Positions 1-19,407 of a stretch of DNA of 54,545 bases are shown piece by piece. Each line of letters starts with the position of its first letter. Within the stretch, counting starts at the first letter, position 1. The position numbers and the translations under genes are program-made. The DNA comes from an uncultured virus (IMG/VR IMGVR_UViG_2504643024_000001). Its lineage: Duplodnaviria > Heunggongvirae > Uroviricota > Caudoviricetes. The stretch is taken from the IMG/VR virus record IMGVR_UViG_2504643024_000001; one strand, written 5' to 3'. Under the pieces are notes generated by a model. It searched no databases. It was not told the origin of the DNA and saw only the letters and a list, made by a program, of their open reading frames with translations.

Positions 1-1050
1 TCATTTTGCCGGCTGGGCGATCGCACCGATACGACGATAAACGCGCTTGGTAATCTCCTGCTCAGAGTGGCCCAGAAGCAAACTCGCATCCGCGATGTCG
101 GTGATTTCCGAGGCTGCTTTTGGTCGGATATCCTTGAACTGGAACTGGCGGATCTTCTCTGCGTCATCAGTCCAGCCCTCTTTGACCGCCAGCGTTCGAG
201 CCGCTTCCCGGGCGCCATCCCATCGATTGCGCAGCATCTGCTGAGAAACGCGCATCCCTGACCTGCTGAGGATGAAGTGCTGCGAGCTGTGCTGTTTGTT
301 CCGTTCCATGATTTCCTCAATGAGAAGACCTAGGCTGTTTTTCACACCGCCGGCCTGCATCTGGATTCGAAGGCGCTTACTGGTTTTTCCTTGCTGCACT
401 GTCAAGTAATCCCCCTCGATGTCTCCACTCGTCATTGCGATAACGTCTGCCGGGCGCTGCCCTGTTAGATAGGCTAAGTCCATCGCGTCCTTCAGCTCCT
501 GCGGAGCCTGTCCATAAACCGCTGCCCAGACCATGTCGTTGGCGTAGTAGTCCCGGACCTTTTCCTTGTTTTTCCGAACGCCTGCGCATGGGTTCTCCCG
601 GTCGGTGAAGCCCCATTCCCGTGCCATGTTGAACACATGGGAGAGAAGGGCAATTTCTCTGTTCGCCCTGGTCTTGGCTATCCTCGCATCCCGATATTGC
701 GCAACCATGGATGGGGTGATTGCGTCGATTGGCGCGTCTTCAAACCCTTTGCGCAGGTGCTTGAGCTCAGCCTTGTTGTCCTTCTGCGTGCGCGGCGCCT
801 TCTTCGGGATGATGTCCCGCTCGTACCTGTCAAAAATCCCCATCATGATCTTCAGGTCGGCCGGCTTGGCCTTGGCTTCCAGTTCGGCCCATTTCAGCCT
901 TGCCTTGTCGAAGTCACTGCCAAGCGACAGCTCCTTGCCGTTCGCATCCCGGTAGTAGTACCCCACCCAAACAGTTCCGTTCTTTCGGGGTCGCTTACGC
1001 CGCACCATCCCTGGCGGCAAATCCCTATTTTCTGTCTTGCGCGGGCGCAT
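1..1050 (-). CDS. int: Tyrosine recombinase/phage integrase
   Basis: TGQRPADV (catalytic R), DIRPKAAS, LLGH and VY motifs; position at prophage end. Confidence 0.93.
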   Translation of the reverse strand: MRPRKTENRDLPPGMVRRKRPRKNGTVWVGYYYRDANGKELSLGSDFDKARLKWAELEAKAKPADLKIMMGIFDRYERDIIPKKAPRTQKDNKAELKHLRKGFEDAPIDAITPSMVAQYRDARIAKTRANREIALLSHVFNMAREWGFTDRENPCAGVRKNKEKVRDYYANDMVWAAVYGQAPQELKDAMDLAYLTGQRPADVIAMTSGDIEGDYLTVQQGKTSKRLRIQMQAGGVKNSLGLLIEEIMERNKQHSSQHFILSRSGMRVSQQMLRNRWDGAREAARTLAVKEGWTDDAEKIRQFQFKDIRPKAASEITDIADASLLLGHSEQEITKRVYRRIGAIAQPAK

Positions 1051-3409: not shown

Positions 3410-4198
3410 TCAGCTGTTCGCGATGGATGGATTCAGCTCCTTGACCTTGTCGAGGCTGTCTTCGCCCTGTTGAGTGATTTCCCACAATGCCGGGCTGCGT
3501 TGAACTCGATTCAGCAGGCCTAGCTGGGTAAGCAGGTCAAACCAGTGGCGGCCAATATCTGCGCCCTGACCGTCATCGCAACACTCTTGAAACCGCTGCA
3601 ACTTGCGGATCACTTTGTCAGCGAACGGCAGCACCACCGATACCGGCGCGGGCTGCGAGGTGTAGAGCGGCGTCTCAACCTTGCAGCAGATGTCGAAAGA
3701 CTTGCCGCATTCATCCTTGGTTAGTACGGTTCCGTCTGCGTATAGCACAGCCACCGGCTCACCCTTCAGCCGCTCAATCTCGGCGCGCAGGGTGCTGCAT
3801 TGGCGCAAAGCAGCATCACGCCCTCTGCGCATCACATCTACCTCGTCATGCAATCGCTCGTTCTCCGCCGTCAGCTGTGCGATGGTGGCTTGCAGTTCGG
3901 CGAGTTCGGGCGGGGCGGGATGCTCTGCGCGACCATACTTCAGAAAGTTGCAAACATCAGATACCCACTCGTTCCGCATGTATTCGTTCGGCATCCAATT
4001 GGATTCGTCGGCAGCCTTTTGGATGGTTTCCCAATCGACTGCATCAAGGTCAATGACATTGGGCTGGCGCTCGACGACAGGGGCGGCTATCAATGCATCA
4101 AGCTCTTTTGCTGCTCCGGTTTTCTCGGCGTCATGCATGTACAGGACGTGAGCAAGCCTCTCTGCCAGCTCCCGCGACACTTCAATTTTACTGCTCAT
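3410..4198 (-). CDS. Mosaic coiled-coil early protein
   Basis: 262 aa ORF, coiled-coil middle section. Confidence 0.65.
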   Translation of the reverse strand: MSSKIEVSRELAERLAHVLYMHDAEKTGAAKELDALIAAPVVERQPNVIDLDAVDWETIQKAADESNWMPNEYMRNEWVSDVCNFLKYGRAEHPAPPELAELQATIAQLTAENERLHDEVDVMRRGRDAALRQCSTLRAEIERLKGEPVAVLYADGTVLTKDECGKSFDICCKVETPLYTSQPAPVSVVLPFADKVIRKLQRFQECCDDGQGADIGRHWFDLLTQLGLLNRVQRSPALWEITQQGEDSLDKVKELNPSIANS

Positions 4199-4440
4199 TC
4201 GCTTGCTCCTACTGACTTCGGCTCAAGGCGCGCAAGACGCTCACGCAGGCTATTAATCTCGTCTTGGTACTGGTCAGCCAAGGTTGTCAGGTCATTGAAG
4301 TTAACCCAGTGGCCGTGTTTTTCTGGGACACGAATAACGCTGCCTTTTTCATCTTCGCCACCACGCCAAAAGTTGAAGCGTGGCAATTCGTGGACCTTAT
4401 CCCAAAGGTCAAAGCCTTCACGCGTTTTTATGTTTCTCAT
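4195..4440 (-). CDS. Hypothetical phage protein
   Basis: 81 aa, bounded by 16-nt junction repeats. Confidence 0.6.
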   Translation of the reverse strand: MRNIKTREGFDLWDKVHELPRFNFWRGGEDEKGSVIRVPEKHGHWVNFNDLTTLADQYQDEINSLRERLARLEPKSVGASE

Positions 4441-5096
4441 TCGCTTGCTCCCGATTCTTCATAGCCTGACCCTTTGCAGGCATAACATGTTCCGCCTATG
4501 GGCATACCATTACTGTAAGCCTGCCCAGTTCCGAAGCAGGCTGAACATTTGTCTTCACTTGCTCCTGATTCGGTGGGCTTAGTCAGTGCGTTTATCGACT
4601 TGACCACATTCAGAATGTGCTGGGCCTGAGTTTCCATAGTCTGATCAGACTTGTTTTGTTGGCATGTCGAATCAGAATCCGCTTGCTGCCAATAAACCTG
4701 ACCGAGACTGAATGACCGTCTAAGAGCGCTTTCAACCATGGCGACGATCTCGGTATTACAGGCTGCATTCCGCTGCTCGGCGGCTGTCAGGCGATGTTGC
4801 AGGTTGTCTCGGCTGGCTTTGAATTCGTTTCGCGCACGTTTGCTATTGCTGGCCGCCTCTCCAGCTATGGCACGAACACTTGCCAGCTCTTCCCGCAGCG
4901 CATCACGCTCTTCCTTGAATCGCTGACCTTCTTTATGCTTGCCGTGTACTGAGTTGGAGTTGATCTCAACGTAACGCTTTTGGCGCTCAAGCTCTTCCCG
5001 CAGCGCAGCCTCGCGGGCCAGGGCGGCGTCATAATCAGATGCTTTGACCCACTCAATTCCGTCGTCACATATCTTGAATCGCTTCACTTCGCTCAT
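4437..5096 (-). CDS. Coiled-coil protein with C-terminal CxxCxGxG zinc-finger pair
   Basis: CSACFGTG...CYACKGSG at the C-terminus. Confidence 0.65.
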   Translation of the reverse strand: MSEVKRFKICDDGIEWVKASDYDAALAREAALREELERQKRYVEINSNSVHGKHKEGQRFKEERDALREELASVRAIAGEAASNSKRARNEFKASRDNLQHRLTAAEQRNAACNTEIVAMVESALRRSFSLGQVYWQQADSDSTCQQNKSDQTMETQAQHILNVVKSINALTKPTESGASEDKCSACFGTGQAYSNGMPIGGTCYACKGSGYEESGASE

Positions 5097-5124
5097 CCTG
5101 CAATCTCCATCGATACCAGATCAT

Positions 5125-6087
5125 TCACGGCGGCCCCGTGCGGCTCTTTGCGTCCAGCCAGGAACGACATGACAAGAGGGGCAACGGTTGCAGGATGGTC
5201 TTCGTCGGGTTCAGCTTTGCGCCAAGGTAGGGCAGGAACGCTTCAACCTCTGTCAGCCAGGCGTTGAGCTGTTGCGGTGATTCATGCAGAAACACGAAGT
5301 CGTCGACGTAGCGAACGTAATGCTTGGCGCCGAGCTTGTGCTTGGCGAACTGGTCCAGCGCGTCGAGGTACACGTTGGCAAAGAATTGCGATGACAGGTT
5401 GCCGATCGGCAGACCGAGGCGTGCCGGCTGCGCGGTGAGGCGTTTGTGCTGCGGTACCCGGTTGAACAGATGGGCCGGGCTGCGCACTTCATAGTCTTCG
5501 CGAGGGTCGTGCATCAGGATCTGTTCGGCGAGTGCCAACCACCAAGGTTCGGTGATCTTGGCGGCCAACTGCTTGCGCAGGACCTCTTTGTCGATCGCAA
5601 CGAAGAAGTTGGCCAGGTCGCACTTCAGGTAGAAAATCGGCTTCGACCAGTTTTGACTGGCGCTGCGGATTTTTGCCTCAAGCCGTTTAGCAGCGTACAG
5701 CGTGCCGCGCTCTGGGATGCAGGCGCAACTGTCCGCTATGAAGCTGGCGTAGAAGCGCGGTGCCACACGGTTGTACAGCAGGTGGTGGACGACGCGGTCC
5801 CTGAACGCTGCCGCCCAAACCTCGCGGGCTTTCGGGCGGGTGACCACGAAGCATATCGAACGGCCTGGCCGGTAGGTGCCGGCGATCAGGTCGTCGTGTA
5901 GACCGATCAGGTTCTTCTCCAGGTCCATCTCGAAAGCCAGTGCACTGGCGCTGTTGCGCTTCGTGCGGCGGCAGTCGTAATAAGCCTGAACAAGCTCGCT
6001 GAACGGGTAGGGACCAACATTCGAATCTGCGGACGGGGCGGACGCGGAGCTCGTTGTTCTTGTCGTTGTTGTTGGAGTTGCCATCAT
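5125..6087 (-). CDS. DGR reverse transcriptase, apparently C-terminally truncated
   Basis: FRDRVVHH, LKCDLANFF, GLPIGNLSSQFFAN and YVRYVDD motifs; adjacent TR and avd; no G(I/V)DFxG motif after KTILQP. Confidence 0.93.
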   Translation of the reverse strand: MMATPTTTTRTTSSASAPSADSNVGPYPFSELVQAYYDCRRTKRNSASALAFEMDLEKNLIGLHDDLIAGTYRPGRSICFVVTRPKAREVWAAAFRDRVVHHLLYNRVAPRFYASFIADSCACIPERGTLYAAKRLEAKIRSASQNWSKPIFYLKCDLANFFVAIDKEVLRKQLAAKITEPWWLALAEQILMHDPREDYEVRSPAHLFNRVPQHKRLTAQPARLGLPIGNLSSQFFANVYLDALDQFAKHKLGAKHYVRYVDDFVFLHESPQQLNAWLTEVEAFLPYLGAKLNPTKTILQPLPLLSCRSWLDAKSRTGPP

Positions 6088-6127
6088 CGAAGTTCATGTT
6101 GAATGCGTTGTTGGCGGAGCGCTGCGA
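6023..6127 (-). repeat. DGR template repeat (TR)
   Basis: 105 nt with 10 AAC codons and 31 adenines; matches three VRs with A-specific mismatches; lies between avd and RT. Confidence 0.96.
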
Positions 6128-6298
6128 CCTATCGTGCTATCTACGTCGCCAAGCCGAAGGCAGGGCCGATCAGCGAGGAAACTACGCGAGACCTGCACGG
6201 ACGCTTTAGACCGTCGGTATCTCTGATGCGTATGGCGGTGACCCAGAGGTCAGCGGCACGACCAGATTCAATTCGCACAGACCTGAAAGCCGTGACTC

Positions 6299-6655
6299 TC
6301 AGGTGGCGGGCGCGGTTGGGGTGGAGCGTTTCCAGGCATTGGCCTGTTTGCCGATTGAGGTGGTGACCTCGATCGCGGTGGCGTGCTGCCCGACACTGAT
6401 GAACCGGCTCTCTTTGAAAAGCCGCATCAGGAACTCGATCACCTGGACCTTCTCAACCAGCAAGGTCAGGTGTGGGCGCTTGTCCCGGGTCGAGTTAGCC
6501 CGGGCAATCAACATCAGCACGTCGATGCACTCATCGATGACTCGCTTTCCGAGAGACTGCTTGAGATCTCGGGGTATGTTGCGAGTGAGGTTCGTGGCCA
6601 TCTGAAGCAGGCCGAGCGAAGCCTTATAGATGCTCAAATCCGTGTGCATCGCCAT
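6299..6655 (-). CDS. avd: DGR accessory variability determinant (four-helix bundle)
   Basis: 118 aa basic helical protein (L..Y....L, IGKQANAW) between target and TR. Confidence 0.88.
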   Translation of the reverse strand: MAMHTDLSIYKASLGLLQMATNLTRNIPRDLKQSLGKRVIDECIDVLMLIARANSTRDKRPHLTLLVEKVQVIEFLMRLFKESRFISVGQHATAIEVTTSIGKQANAWKRSTPTAPAT

Positions 6656-6676
6656 TCGGCAGCTCTCCAAGAGCAA

Positions 6677-6694
6677 CCGGCCGCAAGCGGCCGG
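6677..6694. other. GC-rich hairpin downstream of VR1 (candidate DGR homing cruciform)
   Basis: CCGGCCGC-AA-GCGGCCGG perfect inverted repeat 14 nt past the target 1 stop. Confidence 0.75.
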
Positions 6695-6708
6695 ATTAAA
6701 TAAGCGAA

Positions 6709-7329
6709 TTAATCAATCAATTGACTGCGGACGGGGCGGACGCGGAGCTCGTAGCTCTTGCCGCTGGTGTCGGAGTAGCCATCATCGAAGAGCATGAGGA
6801 ATGCGTAGTCGGCGGAGCGCTGCGAAGATGACCAGTACCAGGTTGGTTTAAAGGCTTCAGCGCCACCAGCCTGGAAGGCTTCCATCGTGGTCTGGGCTGG
6901 CGAGTCTTCAGTGTGAAGCAGCCCCACAGGCTCGCTGTTCGGGTTGTCACCGCTGCGACCGTACTGCCAGTTCGTTTCGGTTGTCGGCTTGAAGAGGCGG
7001 TATTGCAGCTCTTGCACGTCTCGGGCCGGGATCGCCCAGTCGGTGAAGCCGCCGATATCCAGAGCTAGCACTTGCTGTGCTAGTTCGCTGCCAGCGGCCG
7101 CCATCGCTTCGGTGTTGGCGCGGCTGCTGGTGAAGCTGTTAGCACCCTCGATCTTTTCGCCGTACTCGCCCCAGGCACCGCTCAGTTCGTGCGCGGCGCC
7201 GGCGGTGATGTTCAGGTAGCGCTTGCCGGTGTCCGGGTCACGGGTGATACCAGAGAAGAAGCCGCCGCCGTAGGCTTGGCCGATTTCCGGGATAGTTATT
7301 GCTGGCGCTGCTTGCTGTGCTGCTGACAT
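6709..7329 (-). CDS. DGR target 1, C-type-lectin-like (DUF1566-like) protein
   Basis: C-terminal VR; YWSSS...RVRPVR motif. Confidence 0.9.
   Translation of the reverse strand: MSAAQQAAPAITIPEIGQAYGGGFFSGITRDPDTGKRYLNITAGAAHELSGAWGEYGEKIEGANSFTSSRANTEAMAAAGSELAQQVLALDIGGFTDWAIPARDVQELQYRLFKPTTETNWQYGRSGDNPNSEPVGLLHTEDSPAQTTMEAFQAGGAEAFKPTWYWSSSQRSADYAFLMLFDDGYSDTSGKSYELRVRPVRSQLID
6725..6825 (-). repeat. DGR variable repeat VR1
   Basis: 13 mismatches to TR, all at TR adenines. Confidence 0.96.
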
Positions 7330-7354
7330 GGTCTTTCCTCTTTTCGAAGGCAAC

Positions 7355-7374
7355 AAAAAAGGCGCTGCTGCGCC
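7355..7374 (-). terminator. Short hairpin plus U-tract downstream of target 2 (terminator or VR2 homing hairpin)
   Basis: GGCGC-AGCA-GCGCC-TTTTTT on the minus strand. Confidence 0.45.
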
Positions 7375-7414
7375 CGGTGCCGATCAAGAACGAATGATTG
7401 AAGGATTAAATAAA

Positions 7415-7519
7415 GAATCTGCGGACGGGGCGGACGCGGAGCTCGTTGCCCTTGTCGTTGTAGGTCTGAGTGCCATCAGCGAAGGTCATGCCGAATGCGA
7501 AGCTGGCGGAGCGCTGCGA
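7415..7519 (-). repeat. DGR variable repeat VR2
   Basis: 12 mismatches at TR adenines plus 4 contiguous non-adenine mismatches. Confidence 0.92.
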
Positions 7520-7869
7520 ACTCGACCAGTAGCAATCCTTCGCGAACAGTTCCGGCACGTTCACCCAGCAGTGGTACAGCTCGGCACAGGCTGGCAGGTA
7601 GAAGTCGTGATGACCGTCTGCCTGGTGTTCGGCGCATGCATCTGCTGCTGGATACTTTCTCTCGTCATCGTTGCCAATCAGTACCTGCGTGTTGCTATAG
7701 CCGTCGGTCTTGCTGAGGCCTTCCACCTCAACTCCACGGCCACCCCACTCAAGACTGCCGACATCCTTGGCTGCGATGATCAGGTAGTGCGCCGGCACAT
7801 CGCCACGAGTCGCTACCAGACCTCCGTTGAAACCACCTTGGCCGGGCCACTCAGCGCCGAGCGCCGGGA

Positions 7870-7919
7870 TGTTGGTTGGTGCGATTGGCTGGACTGTTGG
7901 TTGGTGCGATTGGCTGGAC
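7870..7919. repeat. Perfect 2 x 25-bp tandem duplication
   Basis: tgttggttggtgcgattggctggac at 7870-7894 and 7895-7919. Confidence 0.97.
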
Positions 7920-8067
7920 ATTCGCAGCTGGCGGTAGCACCAGGGCAAACGTACTGGCCAGCGCCAGTTTTGCCAGTTGTGACGCGGGCATCTTGATCGT
8001 GGTGTCGCCGTGCTTGAGGGTGATCATTTCAGGTTTCATCGTGATACCTCTTTATGTGAAGTTGAAG

Positions 8068-8378
8068 TTATTCGTCGTGGCAGATGCGCAGAGCCTCTCG
8101 GTTGTAGGCGAGCTCCAATTTGCGCGACACGTTTTCGGGTATTGCGTAATTGTGTCGCGGAGGTGCGAAGAATGGCGCTGAACCCTGCGGTCCGAGGGCA
8201 TGCAGATGATGTAGGGCCAAGGTCATTGCCTCGCCTTGCTCATCGATCTGGTGCCACTCCATCAAGTCGGCCAACACCTGCCGGGACCGGCCATGGCATG
8301 CATTCGCAACTCTTCCTCGCCGCGAGTCTTTCGTCTCGCCGCAGCCTTGGCTGAGCGGTCTTTCGGTTCGGCAGCCAT
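8068..8378 (-). pseudogene. Phage hypothetical protein with a 1-nt frameshift near 8286
   Basis: RBS and ATG at 8378 (MAAEPKDRSAKAAARRK...) run out of frame with ORF 8068-8277; total span 311 nt. Confidence 0.65.
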
Positions 8379-8387
8379 CGTCAACTC

Positions 8388-9026
8388 CTATCGCTTTGGC
8401 TCTTTCGCGAAAAAGGCCGGCTGAGGGCCGCTGCTAGCCTTCGGATAGTCAATATCGAACTTTGCCAGTAGCCGCTCGAAGTTTTTGGCGGTGGATTGGA
8501 TGCTTTCTCGCGCCTTATTTCTGCTGAATCCGAGTGCTTTGAACTCCTTGATCATCTCGGCGTTCTTGGCGTCCCGCTCATCATCAACAATCTTTCCGCC
8601 CTTGTTGGCCCGGGTATGTGCTGGCTGGAACTTGAAGTCACCCTTCTTGGCAATCCTGTTCAGCTCGCGGAGCGGAATCCCTGTGCACAGAACTGCTTGT
8701 GCGTAGGTCATGGTCTCAGCCAGGCAACGGATATGTTCCACCTGTTCAGCCTTAGCCTGTTCGCGCATTGCCGCCCGCTCTTCGCGCTCGATGTCGCGCT
8801 GAGCCAGCTTGTCGAGCCATTTAGGCTCAACTGCTTTCTGGACTGGCTTGACCTTCTTGCGTGGTGGCGGCTCATGGCGAATCGGCGGAGGGATGAAGTT
8901 CGGCCCTTGCAATACCTCAATAGTCCCTCCTTTGTTCAAGAAGGCTTCCTGAAGTAGGGCCAGTTCGTGGCGTTGAGGGTCGAGCATCTGGATCATGGAA
9001 AGCTCAGTGCTGACGTATGCGTTCAT
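8388..9026 (-). CDS. Hypothetical phage protein
   Basis: 212 aa operonic ORF; AFLNKGGTIEVL motif. Confidence 0.7.
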   Translation of the reverse strand: MNAYVSTELSMIQMLDPQRHELALLQEAFLNKGGTIEVLQGPNFIPPPIRHEPPPRKKVKPVQKAVEPKWLDKLAQRDIEREERAAMREQAKAEQVEHIRCLAETMTYAQAVLCTGIPLRELNRIAKKGDFKFQPAHTRANKGGKIVDDERDAKNAEMIKEFKALGFSRNKARESIQSTAKNFERLLAKFDIDYPKASSGPQPAFFAKEPKR

Positions 9027-9039
9027 GCTGCTTTACCTC

Positions 9040-9681
9040 TCACGCCGCCTTTTTCATAAGGCGAATGACCATGTCATCGACACCGCGAAGAAAGTCGACT
9101 ATCTCGACTTCGTAGTCTGCGATTGCCTTTTCATTGCGCTCGACGCGGTGAATGAATAGCTGTAGATGCTCGGGCATGCGCGGATCGAACGAGACGAAAT
9201 CAGCGAACTCCGCATCCGATGCCCACATGTTGTGTAGGATCTGCGGGGCATGCTCTGGTGGTAGGCGATCAGCTTCAAGGTAACCAAGGTGCGTGGCACT
9301 CTTCGGGCACTTGGCTTCCCATACGCCTTTGCGGCCCTGGTCCTCGATGAACCCATCCACGCTGCAACCGGCCATGAAGTCGGTCAGGCAGATGAATCCG
9401 CACTCTTGAACGATCAGGCCAGTTTTCTGTTCGTAGGCCATGCGGGCGAACGGCTCTTGCTCGGTGCCCCACATCATTTCCTTGCTGACGAAGAAGTCAT
9501 CGGCGGGTAGGCCGGTTAGACGCTCAAGGCCAAGCTGGATTCGGTAATCGCGCCGCGTCGCTGCTTCGCCTGATTTGATTGCCGCCAGGATGTCCTTGGC
9601 GCGCGAGCCGGTTGCGCGTCCTGCACGGTCCTGCTTCCATTCAAGGGTGCCCTGGGCATGAGTTGAGATAGTGGATTTCAT
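9040..9681 (-). CDS. Lambda-exonuclease/YqaJ family protein
   Basis: QGTLEW..R.G..TGS, WGTEQEP.AR, S.DG, EAKCP, DFVSFDPR. Confidence 0.9.
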   Translation of the reverse strand: MKSTISTHAQGTLEWKQDRAGRATGSRAKDILAAIKSGEAATRRDYRIQLGLERLTGLPADDFFVSKEMMWGTEQEPFARMAYEQKTGLIVQECGFICLTDFMAGCSVDGFIEDQGRKGVWEAKCPKSATHLGYLEADRLPPEHAPQILHNMWASDAEFADFVSFDPRMPEHLQLFIHRVERNEKAIADYEVEIVDFLRGVDDMVIRLMKKAA

Positions 9682-10574
9682 TGGGGAATCTCCTCAAATT
9701 CGACTTCGTCATCGGCATCCGACTGTTCCGGCTCCGACTCAGCTTTAGGTGCGGAGGCTTTCAGCACTACGCCGCGAGCACCGACCGCCGTCTTAAATGC
9801 ATCGTAAGAGGTCATGTCCTTGACCTCATTGATGGCCGAAACGCCGGCCTTCCATACCTCGGTGAGAGCTTCCGGGGTTGCCGCTGCGTTGGCTTGGGCG
9901 ATCCAGTGAGCGGCAAGTTCTGGATCATGCGGCGCCGGGCCAGGCTTCTGATTGGTGGTCTGGGTACCTTCCTGCGGCCGAAGCTCTTCCGGCAGGTCTT
10001 CAATGTCCTGCGTGAAGATGTCCGAAGCGGCGGTTACGTTCAGCGTCATGGCGATCATGGCGCGCTTGCAGGCCATCTTTAGAATGGTGTTGGCAAGATC
10101 GGCGGCCTCGGTGCGGACCTGATCTGCGGTGTTGCCGTTTTTGTAGTACTTCTTCCGACGCAGGTTTTCCGGGGTTGCGTTCAGCTCCGCCTTGCAGATC
10201 ACGGCACGCCACTTGTACTTTTCTTCGTTGGACGAGCATTCTCCAACGCCTTCGCCCAAGGCTACGCCGGTCGTCTGGTGACGCCCCATACAGGTGACGC
10301 GGTAGCGGGCCTCGCCTTGCACTGACAGGTCTTCGATCTTGTATTCCTGCGCCACCCGGAAGGTCACGCACAGCACCTCAGCGCCGGGCTTGTAGAGGGT
10401 CGGCTTATTGGTGCCAGGGATGGTGCCGTAGTGGGTCTCACGCTTCATGATGTCTCGCATCACTTCCTGCACCAGGTTAACGCGCTGGCGAATCTCGACG
10501 GCAGAGAAGCGGTGTGCCTCGGCGGCGGTAAGGCCAGAGGTCTCGCGCGCTGGCATTTGGATAATCTCGTTCAT
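9678..10574 (-). CDS. Putative ssDNA-annealing recombination protein
   Basis: Adjacent to exonuclease; KPTLYKPGAE and KMACKRA...SDIFTQD motifs; acidic tail. Confidence 0.65.
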   Translation of the reverse strand: MNEIIQMPARETSGLTAAEAHRFSAVEIRQRVNLVQEVMRDIMKRETHYGTIPGTNKPTLYKPGAEVLCVTFRVAQEYKIEDLSVQGEARYRVTCMGRHQTTGVALGEGVGECSSNEEKYKWRAVICKAELNATPENLRRKKYYKNGNTADQVRTEAADLANTILKMACKRAMIAMTLNVTAASDIFTQDIEDLPEELRPQEGTQTTNQKPGPAPHDPELAAHWIAQANAAATPEALTEVWKAGVSAINEVKDMTSYDAFKTAVGARGVVLKASAPKAESEPEQSDADDEVEFEEIPQ

Positions 10575-10581
10575 GACGACC

Positions 10582-11145
10582 TCAGTAGGTGATAGCGATG
10601 GCTGGAATCTTGCGCTGAGCGATGAGGGTGATCGCCTGCTTCGCGCATTCCTCGGTCATACCGCCAGCAACAAAAGCGTCGAGTGCCGCGCGATTGATCT
10701 TGGCTTTGTGGGCCTTGTCAGCCTCGCGCAGCTTCTCTTGGCGCAGGATCTCGTCGGCGGCGGCCTTCTGGCGGGCGATCTCGTCTTGCTTGGCCTTTTC
10801 AACTGCAGCCTTCTGGTTCTCGATGGCTGCCAGCCGATCACGCTCGGCCTTTTGTTCGGCCTCTATCTGTTCACGCTTTGCCTGCTCAGCCTTGCGCTCA
10901 GATTCGGCGGCAGCGAGCTTCAGATCGTTCTCGCGCTTCTCGGCGGCAACCTTGGACTTGCTGACCTTGGCGGCCAGCGAGGCGATACGGTCGCGGCCCT
11001 TGGCGGTGGACAGGTCCGGTACCTGGGAGCCTACTTCCTCCTTCACCGCTTGTAGGAATGGCTTCAGGCCGTCCTTCACGTAGATGGCCGGAGCATTGGC
11101 TTCGCTGATGTCGTCGATGGTGACGGCAAGCTGATTGGCGGACAT
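10582..11145 (-). CDS. Phage coiled-coil protein, possibly internally deleted
   Basis: PDLSTAKGRDRIASLA N-terminus joined directly to an Ala/Glu/Lys-rich tail. Confidence 0.65.
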   Translation of the reverse strand: MSANQLAVTIDDISEANAPAIYVKDGLKPFLQAVKEEVGSQVPDLSTAKGRDRIASLAAKVSKSKVAAEKRENDLKLAAAESERKAEQAKREQIEAEQKAERDRLAAIENQKAAVEKAKQDEIARQKAAADEILRQEKLREADKAHKAKINRAALDAFVAGGMTEECAKQAITLIAQRKIPAIAITY

Positions 11146-11301
11146 GGGGATTCCTTGCCGCCATGCAGGCAGCGCTTGAAGTTATTGTTTATTGAGTGAC
11201 GCGATCAGCGAGAGCACCGAGCAGCATCAGGAAGGTGAAGACGGCGAGAGCAGGGAAGGAGCCGCGCCAGATCAGAAGTCGGCGTGCGCGTTGGTGAGAG
11301 G

Positions 11302-11499
11302 TCATGGCTTCAGCTCCTCGTCTGGGTCAAGGCCGAACTCACGACAAAGCGCATATGCCACGCCCGATCCGACTCCAAAAATATCCATGAAGAGAATCCA
11401 GCGCTGATTCATGTATCCGCCGCGCCGTTTCCCGCGCATGTTTCGCATGACACTTTCCAGCAGCTCGCGCTCAGTGTATTCGCATCCTGAGAGCATCAT
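11302..11499 (-). CDS. Hypothetical phage protein
   Basis: Small ORF; FGVGSGVA..LCREFGLDPD motif. Confidence 0.55.
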   Translation of the reverse strand: MMLSGCEYTERELLESVMRNMRGKRRGGYMNQRWILFMDIFGVGSGVAYALCREFGLDPDEELKP

Positions 11500-11927
11500 T
11501 CCGCCACCGCCTCAGCCAAGCTGATCTTCTTCCACGATGGTGGCAGCTTTACGGCTGCGATCTTGCCGTCGTCGTTGGCTTGCAAGATGCTCAGGATCAT
11601 GTGTTCCATGCCCTGTGGCACTTTAGCGTTACAGAGTTGGCCGTCGACTTCGATGATGATTTGCACGATCGAGATGTTCATCGCGACACCGCCACAGGCA
11701 GGCTGATCTGCCGAGGCGCGCCGGTTTCTTTGAATAGGCTGTATTGCATGAGCCAGATGGTCAGGCCACAGGCGAGGATCCAGTAGAAGGTCTTCATTGC
11801 TACTCCCTCCAATACTGAATCGGCACAAAGGTGTATTGCCCTGGTCCGTGCCGATGGACCCGCCACAGGTCCAAGTCGATGCGCTTCAGGAGTTCGTCGA
11901 AGGTGCAAATGCGAGTGGCGAGGCGTT

Positions 11928-12125
11928 TCATGGAGACACCTCAACCAGCCGGCCTCTAGGGTCTATATCCCAGTCGCCCTCCATGAATGCGCCGTTGTCA
12001 CGGCAATGATGACGCCAGCTGCCTTTCACTGGGCATTCAAGCTCGCATACGAGGGTTTCGCGCGGACGCTTGAGAACCCCTTCCAACTCTTCGTCGATCA
12101 GGGTTTTTACCAGGGAAGTTGTCAT
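11928..12125 (-). CDS. Hypothetical phage protein
   Basis: RBS, operonic position. Confidence 0.5.
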   Translation of the reverse strand: MTTSLVKTLIDEELEGVLKRPRETLVCELECPVKGSWRHHCRDNGAFMEGDWDIDPRGRLVEVSP

Positions 12126-12270
12126 TCCGGATCTCCATGCCGATCGTGTCGGGCGTCGTCGAAGCCGAGCTGCCAGCTGAACGCCTCGTTACTGCCGTAC
12201 TCATACGGGTTGCAAGTGGTCTTGCCGTAGGCCAGGAAGCCTTCGCCGTACTTGCAGTTGGGATTCACAG

Positions 12271-12483
12271 TTATCTTGAGCATGCAGACAACTCCTTGCG
12301 CTGCCGGCTGATCTTCAGCAGCTTGGCGCTGTAGTGGTGGAATTCTTCGGCGGTGATGTCGCTGGCGGTGAAGTGGCGGACGATCAGGCCCTCAGTGAGG
12401 GTTTCGTCAAGATCGGTCGCCTCTGGCAGTTCAAGGGCTTCCAGTGCCCGGTCGATGGCGATGTGCGGGCTCAAAATCCGCAC
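12271..12483 (-). CDS. Hypothetical phage protein
   Basis: Operonic ORF. Confidence 0.55.
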   Translation of the reverse strand: MRILSPHIAIDRALEALELPEATDLDETLTEGLIVRHFTASDITAEEFHHYSAKLLKISRQRKELSACSR

Positions 12484-12920
12484 CGTCGCTTTTCATGGTC
12501 AGCTTCGCGCTTGGCCTCGATGTACTCGTCGACCTTGCTCTCGACCAGCGCATCAGCCAGGGCATGAATGACCGTGCCTTCGCCCTGATGAGGCCCTAGC
12601 GCCGAGACTGCCCACTTGTACAGATGGTCATCCGTATGGCCGCGACGGACGATCTCGATCAGGATCTTTTCGATTCCGCACTCCTGGTCTAGCTGGGCTT
12701 CCATGTGGGTGACCACGGAGCGGACCAGATCCTTGTGCCGGACCAGTTCGCGCTCACGCCCCCAAGGGTTCGGGGCATAGGCGGACCCTTGGTCCATAAG
12801 GTCCTCTATTGCCGCCTTCTTCCACTCGGCGACGTCTTGCTCGTCAACCGGCGCCTCTTCGTCTTCCGGAGGCAGCATGTTGTCGTACCGCGCCTGGCAA
12901 TCTCTCAGTGCTTCTTGCAT
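12471..12920 (-). CDS. Hypothetical phage protein
   Basis: GGAGG RBS, 149 aa. Confidence 0.65.
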   Translation of the reverse strand: MQEALRDCQARYDNMLPPEDEEAPVDEQDVAEWKKAAIEDLMDQGSAYAPNPWGRERELVRHKDLVRSVVTHMEAQLDQECGIEKILIEIVRRGHTDDHLYKWAVSALGPHQGEGTVIHALADALVESKVDEYIEAKREADHEKRRCGF

Positions 12921-13254
12921 GGCCGAACCCTCCGACGTTTAACCGCTGGCACGAACACGCACGCCAGGCCGTAAAGCTCTGCATTCGAAAAGCATGTACG
13001 CAGGAGAAGCGCGTCGGCTTCACGGTTGCGCGGGATGCTGGTGTTCATGATTTCCTCCAACTGTTTGGTTGCTGAAAACACTCGGCTGCACTCATCCATT
13101 CCACTGGTTGCCGTTGGGCGTGGAGGGGAGTGCATGCGGGTGGATTCGGAGGGAAGTGGGTGCAGGCGGCCGGCACGTCCCGGCACGTATCAGGTCTGGC
13201 CACGCCGACTCGCGCAGCCCCTCGATTCACCTGCAAAGAAGAGCAATAAATGAA

Positions 13255-13833
13255 TTAACGAATGAATAATCTGCGGACGGGGCGGACGCGGAGCTCGTTG
13301 ACCTTGACGCCGCCGTAGTAGGAGTAGCCACCACCGAAGACCATGGTGAACGCGAAGTCGGCGGAGCGCTGCGTGCTGGTCCAGTACGCCCCTTTGGTAA
13401 TCAGTCCATTCACCCACACCTGGTGCATATCTGCAGGTGAGCCTAGGAAGAAGTCATGGTGACCGTCGGCGGTGTATTTGGCGGCGGCGTTGGCGGCAGG
13501 GCGATCACCTTCCGATACAAGCTGCTCGGTGTTCCTCATGCCGTCCCACTTGCTTGTGGCGCCAGATTCGATACCGCGACCGCCCCATGCGTGCTCACCG
13601 ACGTCCTCGGTGGCGAGGATGAGGTAGTGGAAAGGAGCACCTTCGCGAGCTGGAACTGGGCCGCCATTCACACCGCCTTGGCCGGGCCAGTAATCGCCCA
13701 GCGCCGGAATGAAGTCGGTGGCCTGAGTGTTGGCTGGCGCGGCACCGACAAGGCCGGTCAGCACTTGTAGAGCCAGCGCGGCGCAAGGAGTGGTTAGTGT
13801 GGTTGCGCCGTGGTTTACGGTAATCAGTTGCAT
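13255..13833 (-). CDS. DGR target 3 (remote), DUF1566-like protein
   Basis: C-terminal VR; paralogous to target 2 (IPALG..WPGQGG.NGG, HYLI.A..DVG, ADGHHDF). Confidence 0.9.
   Translation of the reverse strand: MQLITVNHGATTLTTPCAALALQVLTGLVGAAPANTQATDFIPALGDYWPGQGGVNGGPVPAREGAPFHYLILATEDVGEHAWGGRGIESGATSKWDGMRNTEQLVSEGDRPAANAAAKYTADGHHDFFLGSPADMHQVWVNGLITKGAYWTSTQRSADFAFTMVFGGGYSYYGGVKVNELRVRPVRRLFIR
13268..13373 (-). repeat. DGR variable repeat VR3
   Basis: 17 mismatches, all at TR adenines, plus one extra codon in the AAC run. Confidence 0.94.
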
Positions 13834-14024
13834 GATTGGGTTCCTTGTCGGGATTGTTCGTTGCCTTCCCACTGCCGACGATCCATCGACACTGGTGAAA
13901 ATCGTGGGTTTACGCAGCTTGAGCCGAGCGGGTGTCGGGCAGCTTCGGGCTTGGCGCGTCTTGCGTGATGAAGACGTAAAGCCAGAGAAGGGCGATCATG
14001 ATTTGTGCTCCATGGGAGTGAATG

Positions 14025-14052
14025 AAGAAAGCCCGAGGGGTAGTCGGGCTTT
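14025..14052 (-). terminator. Intrinsic terminator-like hairpin in the PL transcript
   Basis: AAAGCCCGA...TCGGGCTTT stem. Confidence 0.55.
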
Positions 14053-14185
14053 CCAATCAACCAGACCGCAAGCCAGAAACAGCTGGCCGCGATCTGTGAG
14101 CCGGTCGCACTCTGCTGGAGTCGGCGACCGGGTGTTTCGTCAGTGGTGTGATGCAGGGGGCCGCATTGCGCGGTGTGGACTCTTC

Positions 14186-14322
14186 CGCATCGGGGTGTGA
14201 TCTGGCAGGGATTCGAACCCAAAAGACTTACGTCGATTTCGGCAGCGCTACCTAGTCGACCGCACCGGCTATACCGGGCACCCTGATCCGCCGAGTGAAA
14301 CTCCAGATCACACCCCGATGCG
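14186..14322 (-). ncRNA. Candidate structured RNA closed by a 20-bp perfect inverted repeat, containing a tRNA T-arm-like motif
   Basis: Arms 14186-14205 and 14303-14322; GGGTTCGAATCCC on the minus strand. Confidence 0.45.
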
Positions 14323-14375
14323 CTCTCATAGAGAGGATCGGGCAGTTTTCGTCAGACTGACGTGGCGCTGGTTGT

Positions 14376-14819
14376 TCAGCCTTCACGAACTCGGCTGATC
14401 GAGTTCGGCTCATTCAGAAATGGCGACAACCTCAGCTGAAGCATTTTCACGTGGTCGGCCTGCTGGTCGATCAGACCGCGAATGTCTTTGACTTCGTAGA
14501 ACTGCATCAACTGCTGAACCTCCGTGTCGGGCATTGGAATTGTCCGTGGCTTCATATCTGCCACGCGCACGGTGTAAACCTTGTCCTCGCTTATCCCGCA
14601 GACAATCACACGAGCTACTGCTTCCATGTTGCCCTTGTGAATCGTTGCAGTTGGCGGGGACTGGATCGGCACATCCACCCAAGTGTTCGACTGATAGGTG
14701 CCGACCACCTTGTGGGTGTAGATCTCGTTCGGCACGCCGTGGCGTTTCATCTCGATCAGCGCGTAATCGCCAAAGCTGGGGAACGATGATTTAGCTAAGT
14801 CGTAATTGAATTCACTCAT
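14376..14819 (-). CDS. Hypothetical phage protein
   Basis: GGAG RBS, 147 aa. Confidence 0.65.
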   Translation of the reverse strand: MSEFNYDLAKSSFPSFGDYALIEMKRHGVPNEIYTHKVVGTYQSNTWVDVPIQSPPTATIHKGNMEAVARVIVCGISEDKVYTVRVADMKPRTIPMPDTEVQQLMQFYEVKDIRGLIDQQADHVKMLQLRLSPFLNEPNSISRVREG

Positions 14820-14893
14820 TTGTGACTCCCGTTGATTTCCAATGCCGCCTCATCGAAGCGGCATCAGTAAATCTGTGGGTATTGCCTTTCTCC

Positions 14894-15049
14894 TCAGTAA
14901 CCCAGCCAACCCAGCACTTCTTCACCGCTGTATTCTTCGCGGTCGCCAATGTCCTGCATGAACTCGACGAACGATGAACCGTGCTTGTCGATCTCTCGGC
15001 GAGCTTCTTCTCGGCTGACGGTGGCATCGCAGGCTTCTTGGTAGTTCAT
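14894..15049 (-). CDS. Small hypothetical phage protein
   Basis: AGGAG RBS, start MNYQE. Confidence 0.55.
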   Translation of the reverse strand: MNYQEACDATVSREEARREIDKHGSSFVEFMQDIGDREEYSGEEVLGWLGY

Positions 15050-15389
15050 GGCGCTGCTCCTTTTCGGGGTGATTTTCCAGATGACCCTGTCGCCAAGGTC
15101 ATCGAGGAAATCTGTTCGCCGTGACCCGCTACTGGCGTCGGCCACTGGCTTGAATCTCTTGTTGTTTGTCTGATCGCGGCTCTGCCCATCAGAAAACTGT
15201 TTTCGGTGCTTTACGCTGCACACCCGGGTCAGTTGCCAACCCTCTGAACCGTTAGGCCGGTTCATCGCTGCCTTCTTGCTGGCCGGTGTTGATCCGGCAG
15301 TCTTGAAGCTGGTGCATCTAAAGAGCGGTCGGTCCTTTTCAGGCCCTTCGCTGCCGGTCCCTTGTTAGGTGCTCGGTGGCGATGGGTGA

Positions 15390-15431
15390 AATATAGGATA
15401 GCCTTTATTTCGAGTCAACAGGCTTGCCTTT
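15390..15431 (-). promoter_or_regulatory. PL promoter with two OL operators
   Basis: TTGACT-N17-TATATT on the minus strand; ATAGG-N4-CCTTT (15393-15406) and ACAGG-N4-CCTTT (15418-15431) resemble the OR palindromes. Confidence 0.8.
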
Positions 15432-15644
15432 ATTTTTTTGCTCGGGCACAAAAAATCCCGCTCAGTGGCGGGATCATAAATTCGGGTGGGATGTCAGGGG
15501 CGTAAAAAAGCCCACACGATGGCGGGCCAATGCCGAGAGAAAGGAGTTTAAGACTCGGCGAACTCAGTGTAAGCGGTATATGCGGTATTGCAAGGCGAGA
15601 ACCAAAAAGCCCGCGCTGGACGGCCTCATCTATCCGGGACTGGT

Positions 15645-15890
15645 TCAGTCTTCTGGATCGATCTCTTCCTCTGGTTTCCACCTGGCAACCAGGTTAGCCA
15701 TCAGCTCGGCAATGGCGTCACTGTTGTCCGCCAGTACCTCTAGATGCTCGCTGACTCGGCCATATGTATCCGTGGAGCCGCGCTGATCAATCCAGATGCT
15801 GATCTCTTCGATCGCGCAACCGAGCGCCATGATGTTCTGGTTGAGGCGGTAGAGCAGGGCGGGGGTCGGATCGTCGGGAAGGGTCGGCAT
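15645..15890 (-). CDS. Hypothetical protein (immunity-region accessory)
   Basis: ORF with GGAGG RBS. Confidence 0.6.
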   Translation of the reverse strand: MPTLPDDPTPALLYRLNQNIMALGCAIEEISIWIDQRGSTDTYGRVSEHLEVLADNSDAIAELMANLVARWKPEEEIDPED

Positions 15891-16160
15891 GGCATTTCCT
15901 CCATTAGAGAAGGAAAGGGTAGCAGCGGCCAAAAAAATGGCCCGCATGAGGGCGGACCTAAGGGAATCCTTGAAGGGAGTGTCACTGATACGTCAGCTGA
16001 GGTCAGTGTAGGTCGAAAGGAAGAGGGCGCCAGGTCGATACGAAAAGCTCCGTACTCGGCGGGCTTGGCCATTCAAGGAGCCTCGCCCCTATGCGTGAAT
16101 ACCGATTCAATAATATAAAAGCCCGGCGCTGGGCCGGGCTTGAGGCGAAATGCGATCTTC

Positions 16161-17141
16161 CTAGTCTTCAGCAAGTTTCAGGTCGAGCTCTTGTTGTGTA
16201 CCAAATCTCGCGGAAAATTTCTTTTCGTAGTCAGCGCTTGAACTTGATGACTCGGCCATCTCCAAAATGCGGCCCATGTGAATACGTAGTGCTCGAGCGC
16301 CAATTTCATTGAGGAACTGGAAGAGTTTCTTCTTTTTTGGGTCTCGATCCCTCAGAGCGCGGAGTAGCTCAAGAATCTTTCCGCTGCTTTGAGCGAGGGG
16401 ATAGTAAATGTGCCGGCGAGTGAGGTGCATCAACTTCCATGGTTTACCTCTAGCGGGCACTGGAATTTGGTAGAGTCGGTGCCAAGCAAGATAGAGCTCA
16501 TTAGGGAATTCCTGCTCGTACTTCCGAGCCTCTTCCTGCACAAAATGTTTGAAGGCTGCAACGATTTCTTCTCTGGTTCTGTCGAACCCGGAAAGAGCAT
16601 AAACCAGTCCAGTAATACCAGCTTTTGCCGAGGCGTTCAGGATGATGTGAGCTTGCCTGGCGGCGTTGACCTGGGACGGCAGCAATTTCCCGTCATTTTC
16701 GACCGCAATTACTACCTTGCAGATATCGATAAGGATTGTTACATCATAGCCATTAAGCTGCCTAGGCGGCTGATTGTGGCCCACGGGAGGCCCTTGAAAA
16801 ACAAGAGGATTATCTAACTTTTCGCGGAGTTCTGGCCCGACGTAAGCAGATATCGTTTTCCCGCTTACGAAGCGTGGAAGACGACTCCCCCCCTCCCCAA
16901 GACCTAGCGCTTCACCCATACCACGCTGGCTTATTACCGCTGTCTTCCTATCGTCATCAAGAACGTAACATTCGACGTCGAATCCAAAATCGGTGCTGAA
17001 ATTTCCTTTGTGCGTGGCGCGCATTGGCTTATCTCCCCAGCGAGCTGCAGCGGCTTTCTTCGCTATCGCTTTTCGCTCTGCTTCCGTTAGAGCTTCCGCT
17101 CTTGCTATACCGCCTTTAGCTTTTCCAGATGGTTCCGACAT
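16161..17141 (-). CDS. P63C-domain protein
   Basis: GGIARA..L...ER..IAKKAAAARW N-terminus, CYVLDD, AKAGITGLVYALSGF, YEQEFPNELY, KKLFQFL. Confidence 0.8.
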   Translation of the reverse strand: MSEPSGKAKGGIARAEALTEAERKAIAKKAAAARWGDKPMRATHKGNFSTDFGFDVECYVLDDDRKTAVISQRGMGEALGLGEGGSRLPRFVSGKTISAYVGPELREKLDNPLVFQGPPVGHNQPPRQLNGYDVTILIDICKVVIAVENDGKLLPSQVNAARQAHIILNASAKAGITGLVYALSGFDRTREEIVAAFKHFVQEEARKYEQEFPNELYLAWHRLYQIPVPARGKPWKLMHLTRRHIYYPLAQSSGKILELLRALRDRDPKKKKLFQFLNEIGARALRIHMGRILEMAESSSSSADYEKKFSARFGTQQELDLKLAED

Positions 17142-17224
17142 GCAAGCATCCTCACTTTTGTATGCTTGCATAGTATTGGTATGGGCTGGGGAAGTGCAAG
17201 CATAAAAAAGGCGCCATGCTTGCA
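17140..17224. promoter_or_regulatory. Two TGCAAGCAT-N12-ATGCTTGCA palindromes upstream of the P63C gene
   Basis: 17141-17170 and 17195-17224, identical arms and spacer length. Confidence 0.7.
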
Positions 17225-17308
17225 AAGCTGGCGCCTCTGTAATTTCTTGTGCTATTCGGTTTTTCGGATGCTTATGTTTAATAAATATACAAATCCCCGC
17301 CACCCCAC

Positions 17309-17536
17309 CTACTCGGCCTTCCCCCGCACAATCCTTCCCGCTTTCACCTCATCAGCATACGAAGTCAGCCGATCCGCATCCTCATAGAGTCTGCCGACCA
17401 GCTGCATCAGCTCCAGAGCATCAGCGTCACTGATCCGTTGCGCCAGCCTGCCGAGGTCAATGCAGGACTGTTCAAGGTTGAAGGCGATCCCTTTCAGGTC
17501 GCGCCTCAGGTCCTGCTCAGGTTTTGTCAGACCCAT
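17309..17536 (-). CDS. Hypothetical protein
   Basis: AGGAGG RBS inside junction repeat. Confidence 0.65.
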   Translation of the reverse strand: MGLTKPEQDLRRDLKGIAFNLEQSCIDLGRLAQRISDADALELMQLVGRLYEDADRLTSYADEVKAGRIVRGKAE

Positions 17537-17574
17537 GATGACCTCCTACAAATCCCCGCCGCGCCAGTTGGCAT

Positions 17575-17763
17575 TCAGCCTGCCATAGCCATTCTCAGCA
17601 CTATCACAGCCTCAAGTAGCTTTTGTACCTGGGTCACGACAACCGAAGCCAGATCGTCACTCCCTGCTACTTGAAGAGCGTCCACAACATCGAGCAGTTT
17701 CTCCACCTCGACCTCGATGGCGTGGACGGATTCGCCTATATGGTATTGAAGTGAGTGCGCCAT
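17575..17763 (-). CDS. Hypothetical protein
   Basis: GAGG RBS, start MAHSLQY. Confidence 0.55.
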   Translation of the reverse strand: MAHSLQYHIGESVHAIEVEVEKLLDVVDALQVAGSDDLASVVVTQVQKLLEAVIVLRMAMAG

Positions 17764-17833
17764 CTTGGTCAATCCTCGCGCTAGATCTCCTACAAATCCC
17801 CGCCGCACCAGATGACTCGGCCCAAGAGGCTCA

Positions 17834-18136
17834 TCAGGCTTCTTCGGCCAGCCTCAGAAGATGGGTATATACCGTCTGGGCATCTGCAAACCTCAGGTGC
17901 CCACAGCTGGAGCAGGTGAGCTGAAAGGCAGCCGTGTAACCCCTTGCCAAGCCTTCGAATCGTATAGGAGTGGCCTTTCCCTTCAGGCTTTCGAGAATCC
18001 ATTTCGAGGAGTCGCAGATCCAGCAGGACTTCATATGCCCAATTTCCTTGAGCGCGGCGCTTACCGCCGAAGATGGAAGATCAACTATCTTTTCCAGATC
18101 CTCGACCTTGTCCCTTTTTTTCTTGATGCCTGACAT
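17834..18136 (-). CDS. Zinc-ribbon protein
   Basis: CWIC...CSSCG; GAGG RBS. Confidence 0.6.
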   Translation of the reverse strand: MSGIKKKRDKVEDLEKIVDLPSSAVSAALKEIGHMKSCWICDSSKWILESLKGKATPIRFEGLARGYTAAFQLTCSSCGHLRFADAQTVYTHLLRLAEEA

Positions 18137-18201
18137 ATTGACCTCTCTACTATCGGGAGTTTGGCTTGCATCGCTGCGCCGGATCGCCAGACTTGGAATG
18201 C

Positions 18202-18840: not shown

Positions 18841-18847
18841 GACCGGA

Positions 18848-18914: not shown

Positions 18915-18930
18915 AAATGGGCGGAGAATC

Positions 18931-19140: not shown

Positions 19141-19172
19141 CCAAAATTCCAACCACGTAAGGAAGCCTCCCT

Positions 19173-19388: not shown

Positions 19389-19407
19389 GGGCCCTCAGGA
19401 GGGTCGT

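Follow-up and report, generated by a model that had tools for sequence, protein, structure and literature searches.

A three-target diversity-generating retroelement, most likely arrested, in the early-left arm of a lambda-like prophage

Introduction

Host-range switching by way of tail fibers is the textbook role of a diversity-generating retroelement (DGR) in a phage. In Bordetella phage BPP-1 (mtd-avd-TR-Sp-brt), Avd and the bRT-type reverse transcriptase (RT) serve the adenine-specific transfer of a template repeat (TR) into the C terminus of a target with a C-type lectin (CLec) fold, and that target, Mtd, is a tail-fiber protein encoded by the tail genes. Here we describe a DGR at positions 5125 to 13833 of IMG/VR record IMGVR_UViG_2504643024_000001, a stretch of 54,545 nucleotides (nt), called the window below, that lies at C8:13744-68288 of the 6.2-Mb genome G000. 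The whole window is a lambda-like prophage, and its nearest phage relatives and nearly all homologues of its proteins are from Pseudomonas. Its DGR resembles that of BPP-1 in having Avd, an RT of the bRT type, and adenine-specific transfer into a CLec C terminus but differs in its targets, which are three small free-standing proteins encoded in the early arm. The element is very probably a decayed member of a known DGR family that is widespread in temperate Pseudomonas phages, located in the early-left arm of a prophage that is lambda-like and has a sheathed tail, with diversification most likely stopped.

The layout of this family has already been catalogued, and its mechanism is of the standard DGR type. 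The rows of Supplementary Table S1 of Wu et al. 2018 (PMC5758913) that were available (nos. 35 to 40 and 47 to 49) list nine Pseudomonas DGRs, all with variable repeats (VRs) of class CLec2 and with DUF1566 targets. Eight of the nine have two targets followed by the accessory gene, the TR, and the RT (TG-TG-AVD-TR-RT), and three carry a nonadjacent third target at -8.9, -7.8, and -4.1 kb. As far as these rows go, the window shares with the set its gene order, the CLec2 class, targets of about 200 amino acids (aa) with a C-terminal VR, and a TR with 26 to 30 adenines; one of the entries has a 3-bp indel next to AAC. The window is set apart by an RT that breaks off at residue 302 and by a frameshift in one of the adjacent targets, and whereas few of the entries are flagged as phage associated, the prophage context is explicit here. 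A claim that the arrangement is new is therefore not supported: Table S1 contains it, three-target forms included, and a nonstructural phage DGR target has been described by Benler et al. 2021.

Related cassettes are present in sequenced phages. Cruim01 (PP179333) and SC_8_H2H8_2017 (MT121966) are 79 to 81% identical to the window in nucleotide sequence over 2.5 to 2.9 kb, and Cruim01, like the window, has three VRs, an annotated RT-15 RNA, and an RT that is 89% identical to the one described here. In the Pseudomonas aeruginosa phage Haboob (OR683404), a target, a four-helix-bundle protein, and an RT are encoded just downstream of a CI-like repressor. The RTs of these three phages are full length (386 aa in Cruim01), unlike that of the window, and Cruim01 is annotated with a noncontractile tail, whereas the window prophage has a sheath. 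The available sections of the Cruim01 paper mention neither the RT nor a DGR.

Outside Pseudomonas, the available text of Benler et al. 2021 (PMC8008677) describes a Quimbyvirus DGR target that lies away from the structural module and on the opposite strand and was read as nonstructural and conflict related. Quimbyvirus, which has a Bacteroides host and a frameshifted RT, keeps one target by the tail genes; in the Pseudomonas family, by contrast, all targets seen are nonstructural by position. Multitarget phage DGRs are discussed in the accessible part of Baykov et al. 2023. The Legionella pneumophila DGR target LdtA is, like the targets of the window, of VR class CLec2/DUF1566 according to the consulted parts of Wu et al. 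2018 (PMC5758913), which describe LdtA as a lipoprotein of the cell surface that carries an export signal, something not seen in the window targets. The literature searched, limited outside open access, yielded nothing on what these Pseudomonas proteins do, on their expression, or on whether virions contain them.

Template and variable repeats

A repeat search identified one family of four copies of about 108 nt, at 6023-6130 (the TR, minus strand), 6721-6828 (VR1), 7415-7522 (VR2), and 13270-13377 or 13380 (VR3). These four are the sole copies in the 6.2-Mb genome (E values of 7e-51 to 5e-22), so that none lies inside the tail-fiber open reading frame (ORF) at 50113-51993, where the preliminary description had likewise seen no VR. 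The core of the TR (about 6026-6127; 102 nt) has 30 adenines, 20 of which fall in ten AAC codons. Relative to this core, VR1 has 13 mismatches at TR adenines and 1 elsewhere, VR2 has 12 and 5, and VR3 has 17 and 2 together with a 3-nt insertion; the probability that so many mismatches would fall on adenines by chance is 1.5e-7, 1.4e-4, and 1.6e-9, respectively. The adenine counts reproduce exactly those first reported for the locus, and the invariant tail reported with them corresponds to the last 27 alignment columns, CGAGCTCCGCGTCCGCCCCGTCCGCAG, which are identical in all four copies. Four of the nonadenine mismatches of VR2 are clustered, a feature that had been missed, as had the 3' truncation of the RT ORF and the frameshift in target 2.

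Each VR is followed by a hairpin, and the TR is not. A G+C hairpin of 7 G-C pairs lies downstream of VR1 (6677-6694, minus strand), a hairpin and then a T-run lie downstream of VR2 (7360-7375, minus strand), and VR3 is trailed by a weaker hairpin. On the minus strand, the order is target 2, target 1, avd, TR, and RT, with the third target about 6.5 kb upstream, as originally described. The locus has the invariant 3' end (the initiation-of-mutagenic-homing, or IMH, region), the post-VR hairpin, the avd gene, the C-terminal VR in a CLec target, and the mismatches at TR adenines that are expected of a DGR.

A truncated reverse transcriptase and a split target

The RT ORF (5125-6087, minus strand; 320 aa) matches Pfam RVT_1 at 57.6 bits (cutoff, 29.6) over residues 93 to 297 and phrog_1423 at 3.6e-98. 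It is identical to the 386-aa Cruim01 RT at 270 of 302 residues (89%), and homology to full-length relatives ends at residue 302, the last 18 residues being unrelated. The palm motifs up to YVDD and LNPTKT are retained. When the Cruim01 RT is compared with Bordetella bRT (8ub7_A; E value of 4e-38), the part that has no counterpart in the window corresponds to about residues 254 to 328 of bRT and covers the GINFLGY-type (GxxFxGH/Y) motif and everything after it. The remnant ends before motif 7 and the thumb and lacks the last 84 to 85 or so residues of its full-length relatives; it belongs to the DGR clade by descent but is not a complete RT with motifs 1 to 7 and a thumb.

The breakpoint is visible in the DNA at 5182-5186, where homology to related cassettes begins and to the left of which the sequence has been replaced. 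Alignments obtained with blastn start at 5182 for one related locus (L005) and at 5186 for another (L006), matches to the genomes of three relatives begin at 5182 to 5193, and the junction itself is not spanned by a match in any of 40 relatives. Nowhere in the genome that carries the window was a counterpart of the last 85 aa of the Cruim01 RT found, and a single place in that genome matches the DGR RT at an E value of ≤1e-20, with no second RT of this family.

Target 2 is also damaged. Its C-terminal part, with the CLec domain (7406-7948, minus strand; VR2 at 7415-7522), is 82% identical to residues 40 to 203 of the intact homologue P0062, and its N-terminal part lies in another frame as a 62-aa ORF (7851-8039, minus strand) that is identical to residues 1 to 51 of P0062 at 47 of 51 positions. 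Repeat search and sequence reading revealed a 25-nt tandem duplication at the joint (7861-7910, minus strand), which accounts for the frameshift.

Because the end of the RT is lost and target 2 is split, diversification has most likely stopped in this copy, leaving its VRs frozen. The preliminary description had the phage hypermutating its targets at present, which is hard to maintain for an RT without the last 84 residues of its relatives. Its assignment of the locus to adenine-specific DGRs with avd and RT holds in that all components are of the right clade, with the qualification that the RT is truncated and target 2 is frameshifted. Two points weigh against arrest: the presumed inactivity of a thumb-less RT is extrapolated from other reverse transcriptases, and VR1 is still a clean adenine-type variant, with 13 of its 14 mismatches at TR adenines. 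On account of VR1, the decay may be recent. A search for sequencing runs of this strain turned up none that was usable, with one soil metagenome containing 6% of the words, and listed no RNA run.

The remaining parts of the cassette are intact. The avd gene (6299-6676, minus strand; 125 aa) matches Pfam bAvd at 46.8 bits (cutoff, 40) and phrog_3206 ("Avd protein of DGR") at 1.4e-32; it scores 51 bits against NCBIfam DivGenRetAVD, under the cutoff of 80, and no NCBIfam model reached its cutoff. The structured RNA RT-15 (Rfam RF03018; 6125-6315, minus strand) occupies the gap between avd and the TR, with its last bases extending into the TR, and scores 179.4 bits (gathering threshold, 82; E value of 1.9e-44) over model positions 1 to 192 of 192. 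No further DGR RNA family was found by Rfam search in 4000-15000 at an E value of ≤0.1. Since the ATG of the RT ORF (6087) lies inside the TR, a spacer RNA would find no space on the downstream side of the template; folding of the 81 nt that follow the TR was no better than that of shuffled sequences (z, +1.3), and no helper RNA was found 3' of the TR. In BPP-1, the spacer RNA is downstream of its TR. The window differs from BPP-1 in having RT-15 upstream of the TR and an RT ORF that starts within it, and if RT-15 is the helper RNA of this clade, it would lie on the opposite side of the template from the BPP-1 arrangement.

The repeats also carry traces of how they were written. At one codon, 66 of 67 TRs of the family read CAG, mostly as AAT CAG, and the window TR alone reads AAC TCC. 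The TCC is shared by VR1 and the remote VR3, so it was the present TR that wrote both, and the signature shows that a single TR reached a target at a distance of 6.5 kb. VR2 reads ACT CAG, and its four clustered nonadenine mismatches disappear against the usual family sequence AAT CAG; VR2 was thus last written by the ancestral TR or was imported. By analogy with described DGRs, the TR would have been transcribed and copied by RT-Avd with misincorporation opposite adenines, and the cDNA would have replaced the last 100 nt or so of each target gene, rewriting about ten AAC-encoded positions on the CLec binding face. In the probable history of this lineage, the present TR (AAC TCC) wrote VR1 and VR3, and VR2 kept the usual AAT CAG imprint; later, the 3' end of the RT, with motif 7 and the thumb, was swapped for unrelated DNA, and the 25-nt duplication split target 2.

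It is very unlikely that the element is still active, that is, that the 320-aa RT suffices or that another RT substitutes for it and the targets are currently being diversified. Such activity would fit the intact avd, RT-15, TR, and invariant 3' ends, the adenine pattern of VR1, the retained palm motifs, and the presence of about 20 RVT_1 matches in the genome. However, those RVT_1 matches fall outside the family, the resident RT has no equivalent of bRT residues 254 to 328, a full-length RT is kept at nearly all places in other genomes (see below), and VR2 and VR3 bear clustered nonadenine mismatches and an indel, respectively.

Several further features were seen near the RT and elsewhere in the genome. 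The RVT_1 matches lie on several contigs and include at least five identical 452-aa ORFs that resemble copies of one group II intron-type element. The gene abutting the RT stump, p4437 (4437-5096, minus strand), encodes a 219-aa coiled-coil protein with a zinc-finger-like motif (CxxCxGxG ... CxxCxGxG) at its C-terminal end; a match to it was found neither in the phage collection nor in the 80 related loci described below. Between the RT stop and the start of the next gene (5091-5124), 32 to 34 nt recur with 100% identity at unrelated places in two further genomes of the genus (G015 and G003); this stretch may represent a recombination joint or some short repeated element.

Distribution of the family and evidence for activity

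Pattern scanning of IMG/VR yielded 169 target relatives, from which 80 loci were kept. The family cassette includes RT-15 RNA between avd and the TR, and a remote third target is often present. In these, the order T3-type target (as target 3), T1-type target (as target 1), avd, TR, and RT recurs, and where the sequence reaches the flanks, exonuclease and p10582-type genes lie upstream and an integrase gene lies downstream. The RT is full length in 60 of the 80 loci, and 7 loci are cut by the contig end at or before the RT. Among the 73 loci that are not cut in this way, 13 lack an intact RT (6 partial, 7 none). Loss of the RT with retention of targets therefore recurs in the family, and the window copy is in itself an ordinary decayed element. 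In the genus, 34 of 400 other species genomes sampled have an RT homologue (32 of 398 when the unpublished genomes G099 and G371 are left out), and the RT spans its full length at 34 of 37 places in them. Target homologues number 396 at an E value of ≤1e-5, mostly of 190 to 210 aa and from many Pseudomonas species.

Across the TR-bearing loci, VRs typically differ from their TR at 10 to 21 adenines and at 0 to 3 other positions. Two loci, L029 and L059, have identical TRs, RT DNA that is 98.8% identical, and target bodies that are 99 to 100% identical, and despite these near-identical surroundings 15 and 20 differences separate their VRs; all of these (15/15 and 20/20) fall on TR adenines. On this sequence comparison, the Pseudomonas DGR family is active, and VR variation between homologues is concentrated at TR adenines, the pattern on which the preliminary description had staked its account of the element. 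Against ready diversification, seven near-identical locus pairs show only 0 to 2 VR differences, activity being seen only in pairs about 1 to 2% apart; turnover is accordingly not fast at the near-identical scale.

Two loci depart from the common pattern. In L087 (phage vB_Pae_U9), a lone target homologue at 6001-6582 has no Avd or RT nearby and lies at a place where the ORF annotated in the record runs on the other strand. The TR of L030 has an internal 15-nt duplication (NNDKN repeated), and its VRs misalign in an ungapped comparison.

Target proteins and their possible role

All three targets are phrog_4245 proteins. Target 1 (6709-7356, minus strand; 215 aa), which contains VR1, matches phrog_4245 at 8.9e-33; it has no N-terminal mini-domain and carries an insertion of about 45 aa. 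The remote target 3 (13255-13833, minus strand; 192 aa from the ATG at 13833), with VR3 at 13270-13380, matches phrog_4245 at 2.2e-23. With Pfam Lcl_C/DUF1566 (PF07603; cutoff, 34.9 bits), targets 1 and 2 score 32.6 and 29.6 bits, both under the cutoff, and target 3 has no match at an E value of ≤0.01. Many target homologues carry PF07603 in a precomputed table and bear the NCBI name DUF1566.

For target 3, an AlphaFold2 model (pLDDT, 77.3, with low values in the VR loop) predicts a β-hairpin and short helix (residues 1 to 28), a Pro-rich linker, and a C-type lectin fold. In a wide VIA structure search, the best match was the C-terminal domain of Legionella Lcl (8q4e_A; Z score of 8.3, root mean square deviation of 4.2 over 112 aligned residues), followed by a Bacteroides fimbrial protein (4eps_A; Z score of 8.2), Bdellovibrio Bd2740 (Z score of 6.9), and many C-type lectins at Z scores of 4 to 5, with TvpA (2y3c) at 4.3; a Z score of about 8 is in the range where the structure search warns of common arrangements. 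The near-matches to Lcl_C and the VR class point the same way as the model, in agreement with the CLec fold first proposed for these proteins. Foldseek found nothing for target 3 in the PDB at an E value of ≤0.001 (best, 8q4e_A at 0.57). ESM Atlas gave no usable feature for residues 1 to 45, its structure rows lying under the bar, including an Lsr2 dimerization domain (TM score, 0.48). The T1-type N terminus is hydrophilic, and the T3-type scores 1.35 to 1.53 over its most hydrophobic 19 residues. No signal peptide was seen in the targets, as noted from the start, and no lipobox either. No cysteine is invariant among 40 target homologues.

The DGR, including all of its targets, lies in the leftward early arm between the integrase gene (1-1050, minus strand), at the left end of the arm, and the CI-like repressor gene at its head (18202-18900, minus strand; phrog_4, 5.4e-41), on the strand opposite to that of the structural genes. 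The preliminary description had placed the targets in the early operon of the leftward promoter (PL) among recombination genes. The leftward arm and an adjoining gene for a YqaJ-type exonuclease (9040-9681, minus strand; Pfam YqaJ, 93.4 bits) are borne out. The term "PL operon" comes from the gene order, since a scan of 4000-19500 gave 2 promoter-like sites versus 5.6 expected and 22 terminator-like sites versus 17 expected, neither above chance.

The target proteins are probably made early in infection as free binders that are not part of the virion, a reading to which we give about even weight. It draws on their early-arm position, the lack of an invariant cysteine, the lack of an export signal, and the occurrence of the cassette with different tails. 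Several observations weigh against it. All solved fold relatives (Lcl, the Bacteroides fimbrial protein, and Bdellovibrio Bd2740) are adhesins located outside the cell; a signal peptide is not required in virion proteins; the hairpin-helix at the T3-type N terminus, as modeled, could serve as a docking module; and in BFVD the same domain caps long fiber-like viral proteins (DUF1566-like, in proteins of 868, 594, and 1034 aa), and it is also present in short proteins, for example one from Pseudomonas phage D3. These observations would suit targets that are extracellular or virion-borne adhesins, accessory receptor-binding proteins that are docked via the N-terminal mini-domain, which is separated from the rest by the Pro-rich linker, or freed at lysis, in the manner of classical phage DGRs. 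Most viral DGR targets are tail proteins according to the accessible portion of Roux et al. 2021, which mentions nonstructural ones in passing. An adhesin role nonetheless appears doubtful, since the genes are part of the early-left arm and run counter to the structural genes, the cassette combines with unrelated tail modules, the T1-type target has no mini-domain, and neither a signal peptide nor a lipobox was seen.

The combination with different tails can be followed in the records that carry the cassette. A homologue of the sheath protein of the window prophage was found in 3 of 48 cassette-bearing records and in 3 of 41 virus records that are at least 90% complete; the search used one protein query, which other sheath families would escape, and this too counts against the non-virion reading. 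The annotation of Cruim01 includes a 4-kb tape measure gene and a major tail protein, and only 4 of 17 structural or lysis proteins of the window have a match in it. The cassette is independent of tail type, which, like the lack of an export signal and of conserved cysteines, gives only indirect support to the putative intracellular anti-defense binders of the preliminary description.

For free early binders, a specific anti-defense role is graded lower than the non-virion reading as such. We propose only tentatively that the intact family provides a diversifiable set of two to three cytoplasmic early lectin-fold binders for intracellular conflicts, which would neutralize variable host defense proteins or block rival phages. 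If this were the case, the phage would carry a binder repertoire generated in advance, and the RT-less copies would be frozen specificities kept as useful.

Alternatively, the targets might serve the lysogen as prophage-expressed variable sensors or excluders of incoming phages, in superinfection exclusion or defense, instead of aiding lytic growth of the phage itself. The remote target lies within 4 to 9 kb of the repressor gene in the window and in 15 of the 80 loci, target homologues can be found on their own where no RT adjoins them (as in vB_Pae_U9), RT loss with the targets kept is frequent (13 of the 73 loci noted above lack an intact RT), and DGR-based immunity is proposed in the part of PMC10053308 that was accessible. 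This role is unlikely, however: apart from generic RT models, PADLOC models match none of the 21 proteins of the early arm, the targets carry no fused effector domain, and the promoter scan gave no more sites than chance. Free binders made early in infection remain the reading that we prefer. In the Pseudomonas family the targets are all among early nonstructural genes, in contrast to the tail-fiber targets of the textbook role, and because such early targets occur with different tail types, the family, with Cruim01 and Haboob, is a good culturable system for the function of nonstructural DGR targets.

Organization of the prophage

The leftward arm is a long block of minus-strand genes that reaches up to the CI-like repressor gene, and it includes, next to the exonuclease gene, a phrog_10048 gene (9678-10574, minus strand). 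In the rightward direction, O/P-like replication genes, NinB, NinG, and lysis genes are followed by those for terminase, portal, and capsid. The tail sheath gene lies at 37648-39201, baseplate genes are also present according to PHROGs, and the tail-fiber ORF mentioned above (PHROGs) encodes 626 aa.

A gene-poor stretch of the leftward arm at 15390-16141 (minus strand) contains four terminator-like hairpins and the sole strong minus-strand promoter-like site there, TTGACT-17-TATATT (15418-15390). Judged by its sequence, this site may be the start of the early-left transcript, in which target 3 would then be the third ORF. An Ant-type anti-repressor gene (41576-42529, plus strand; phrog_245, 1.9e-49) is located within the tail block, with the tube/chaperone region on one side and the tape measure gene on the other.

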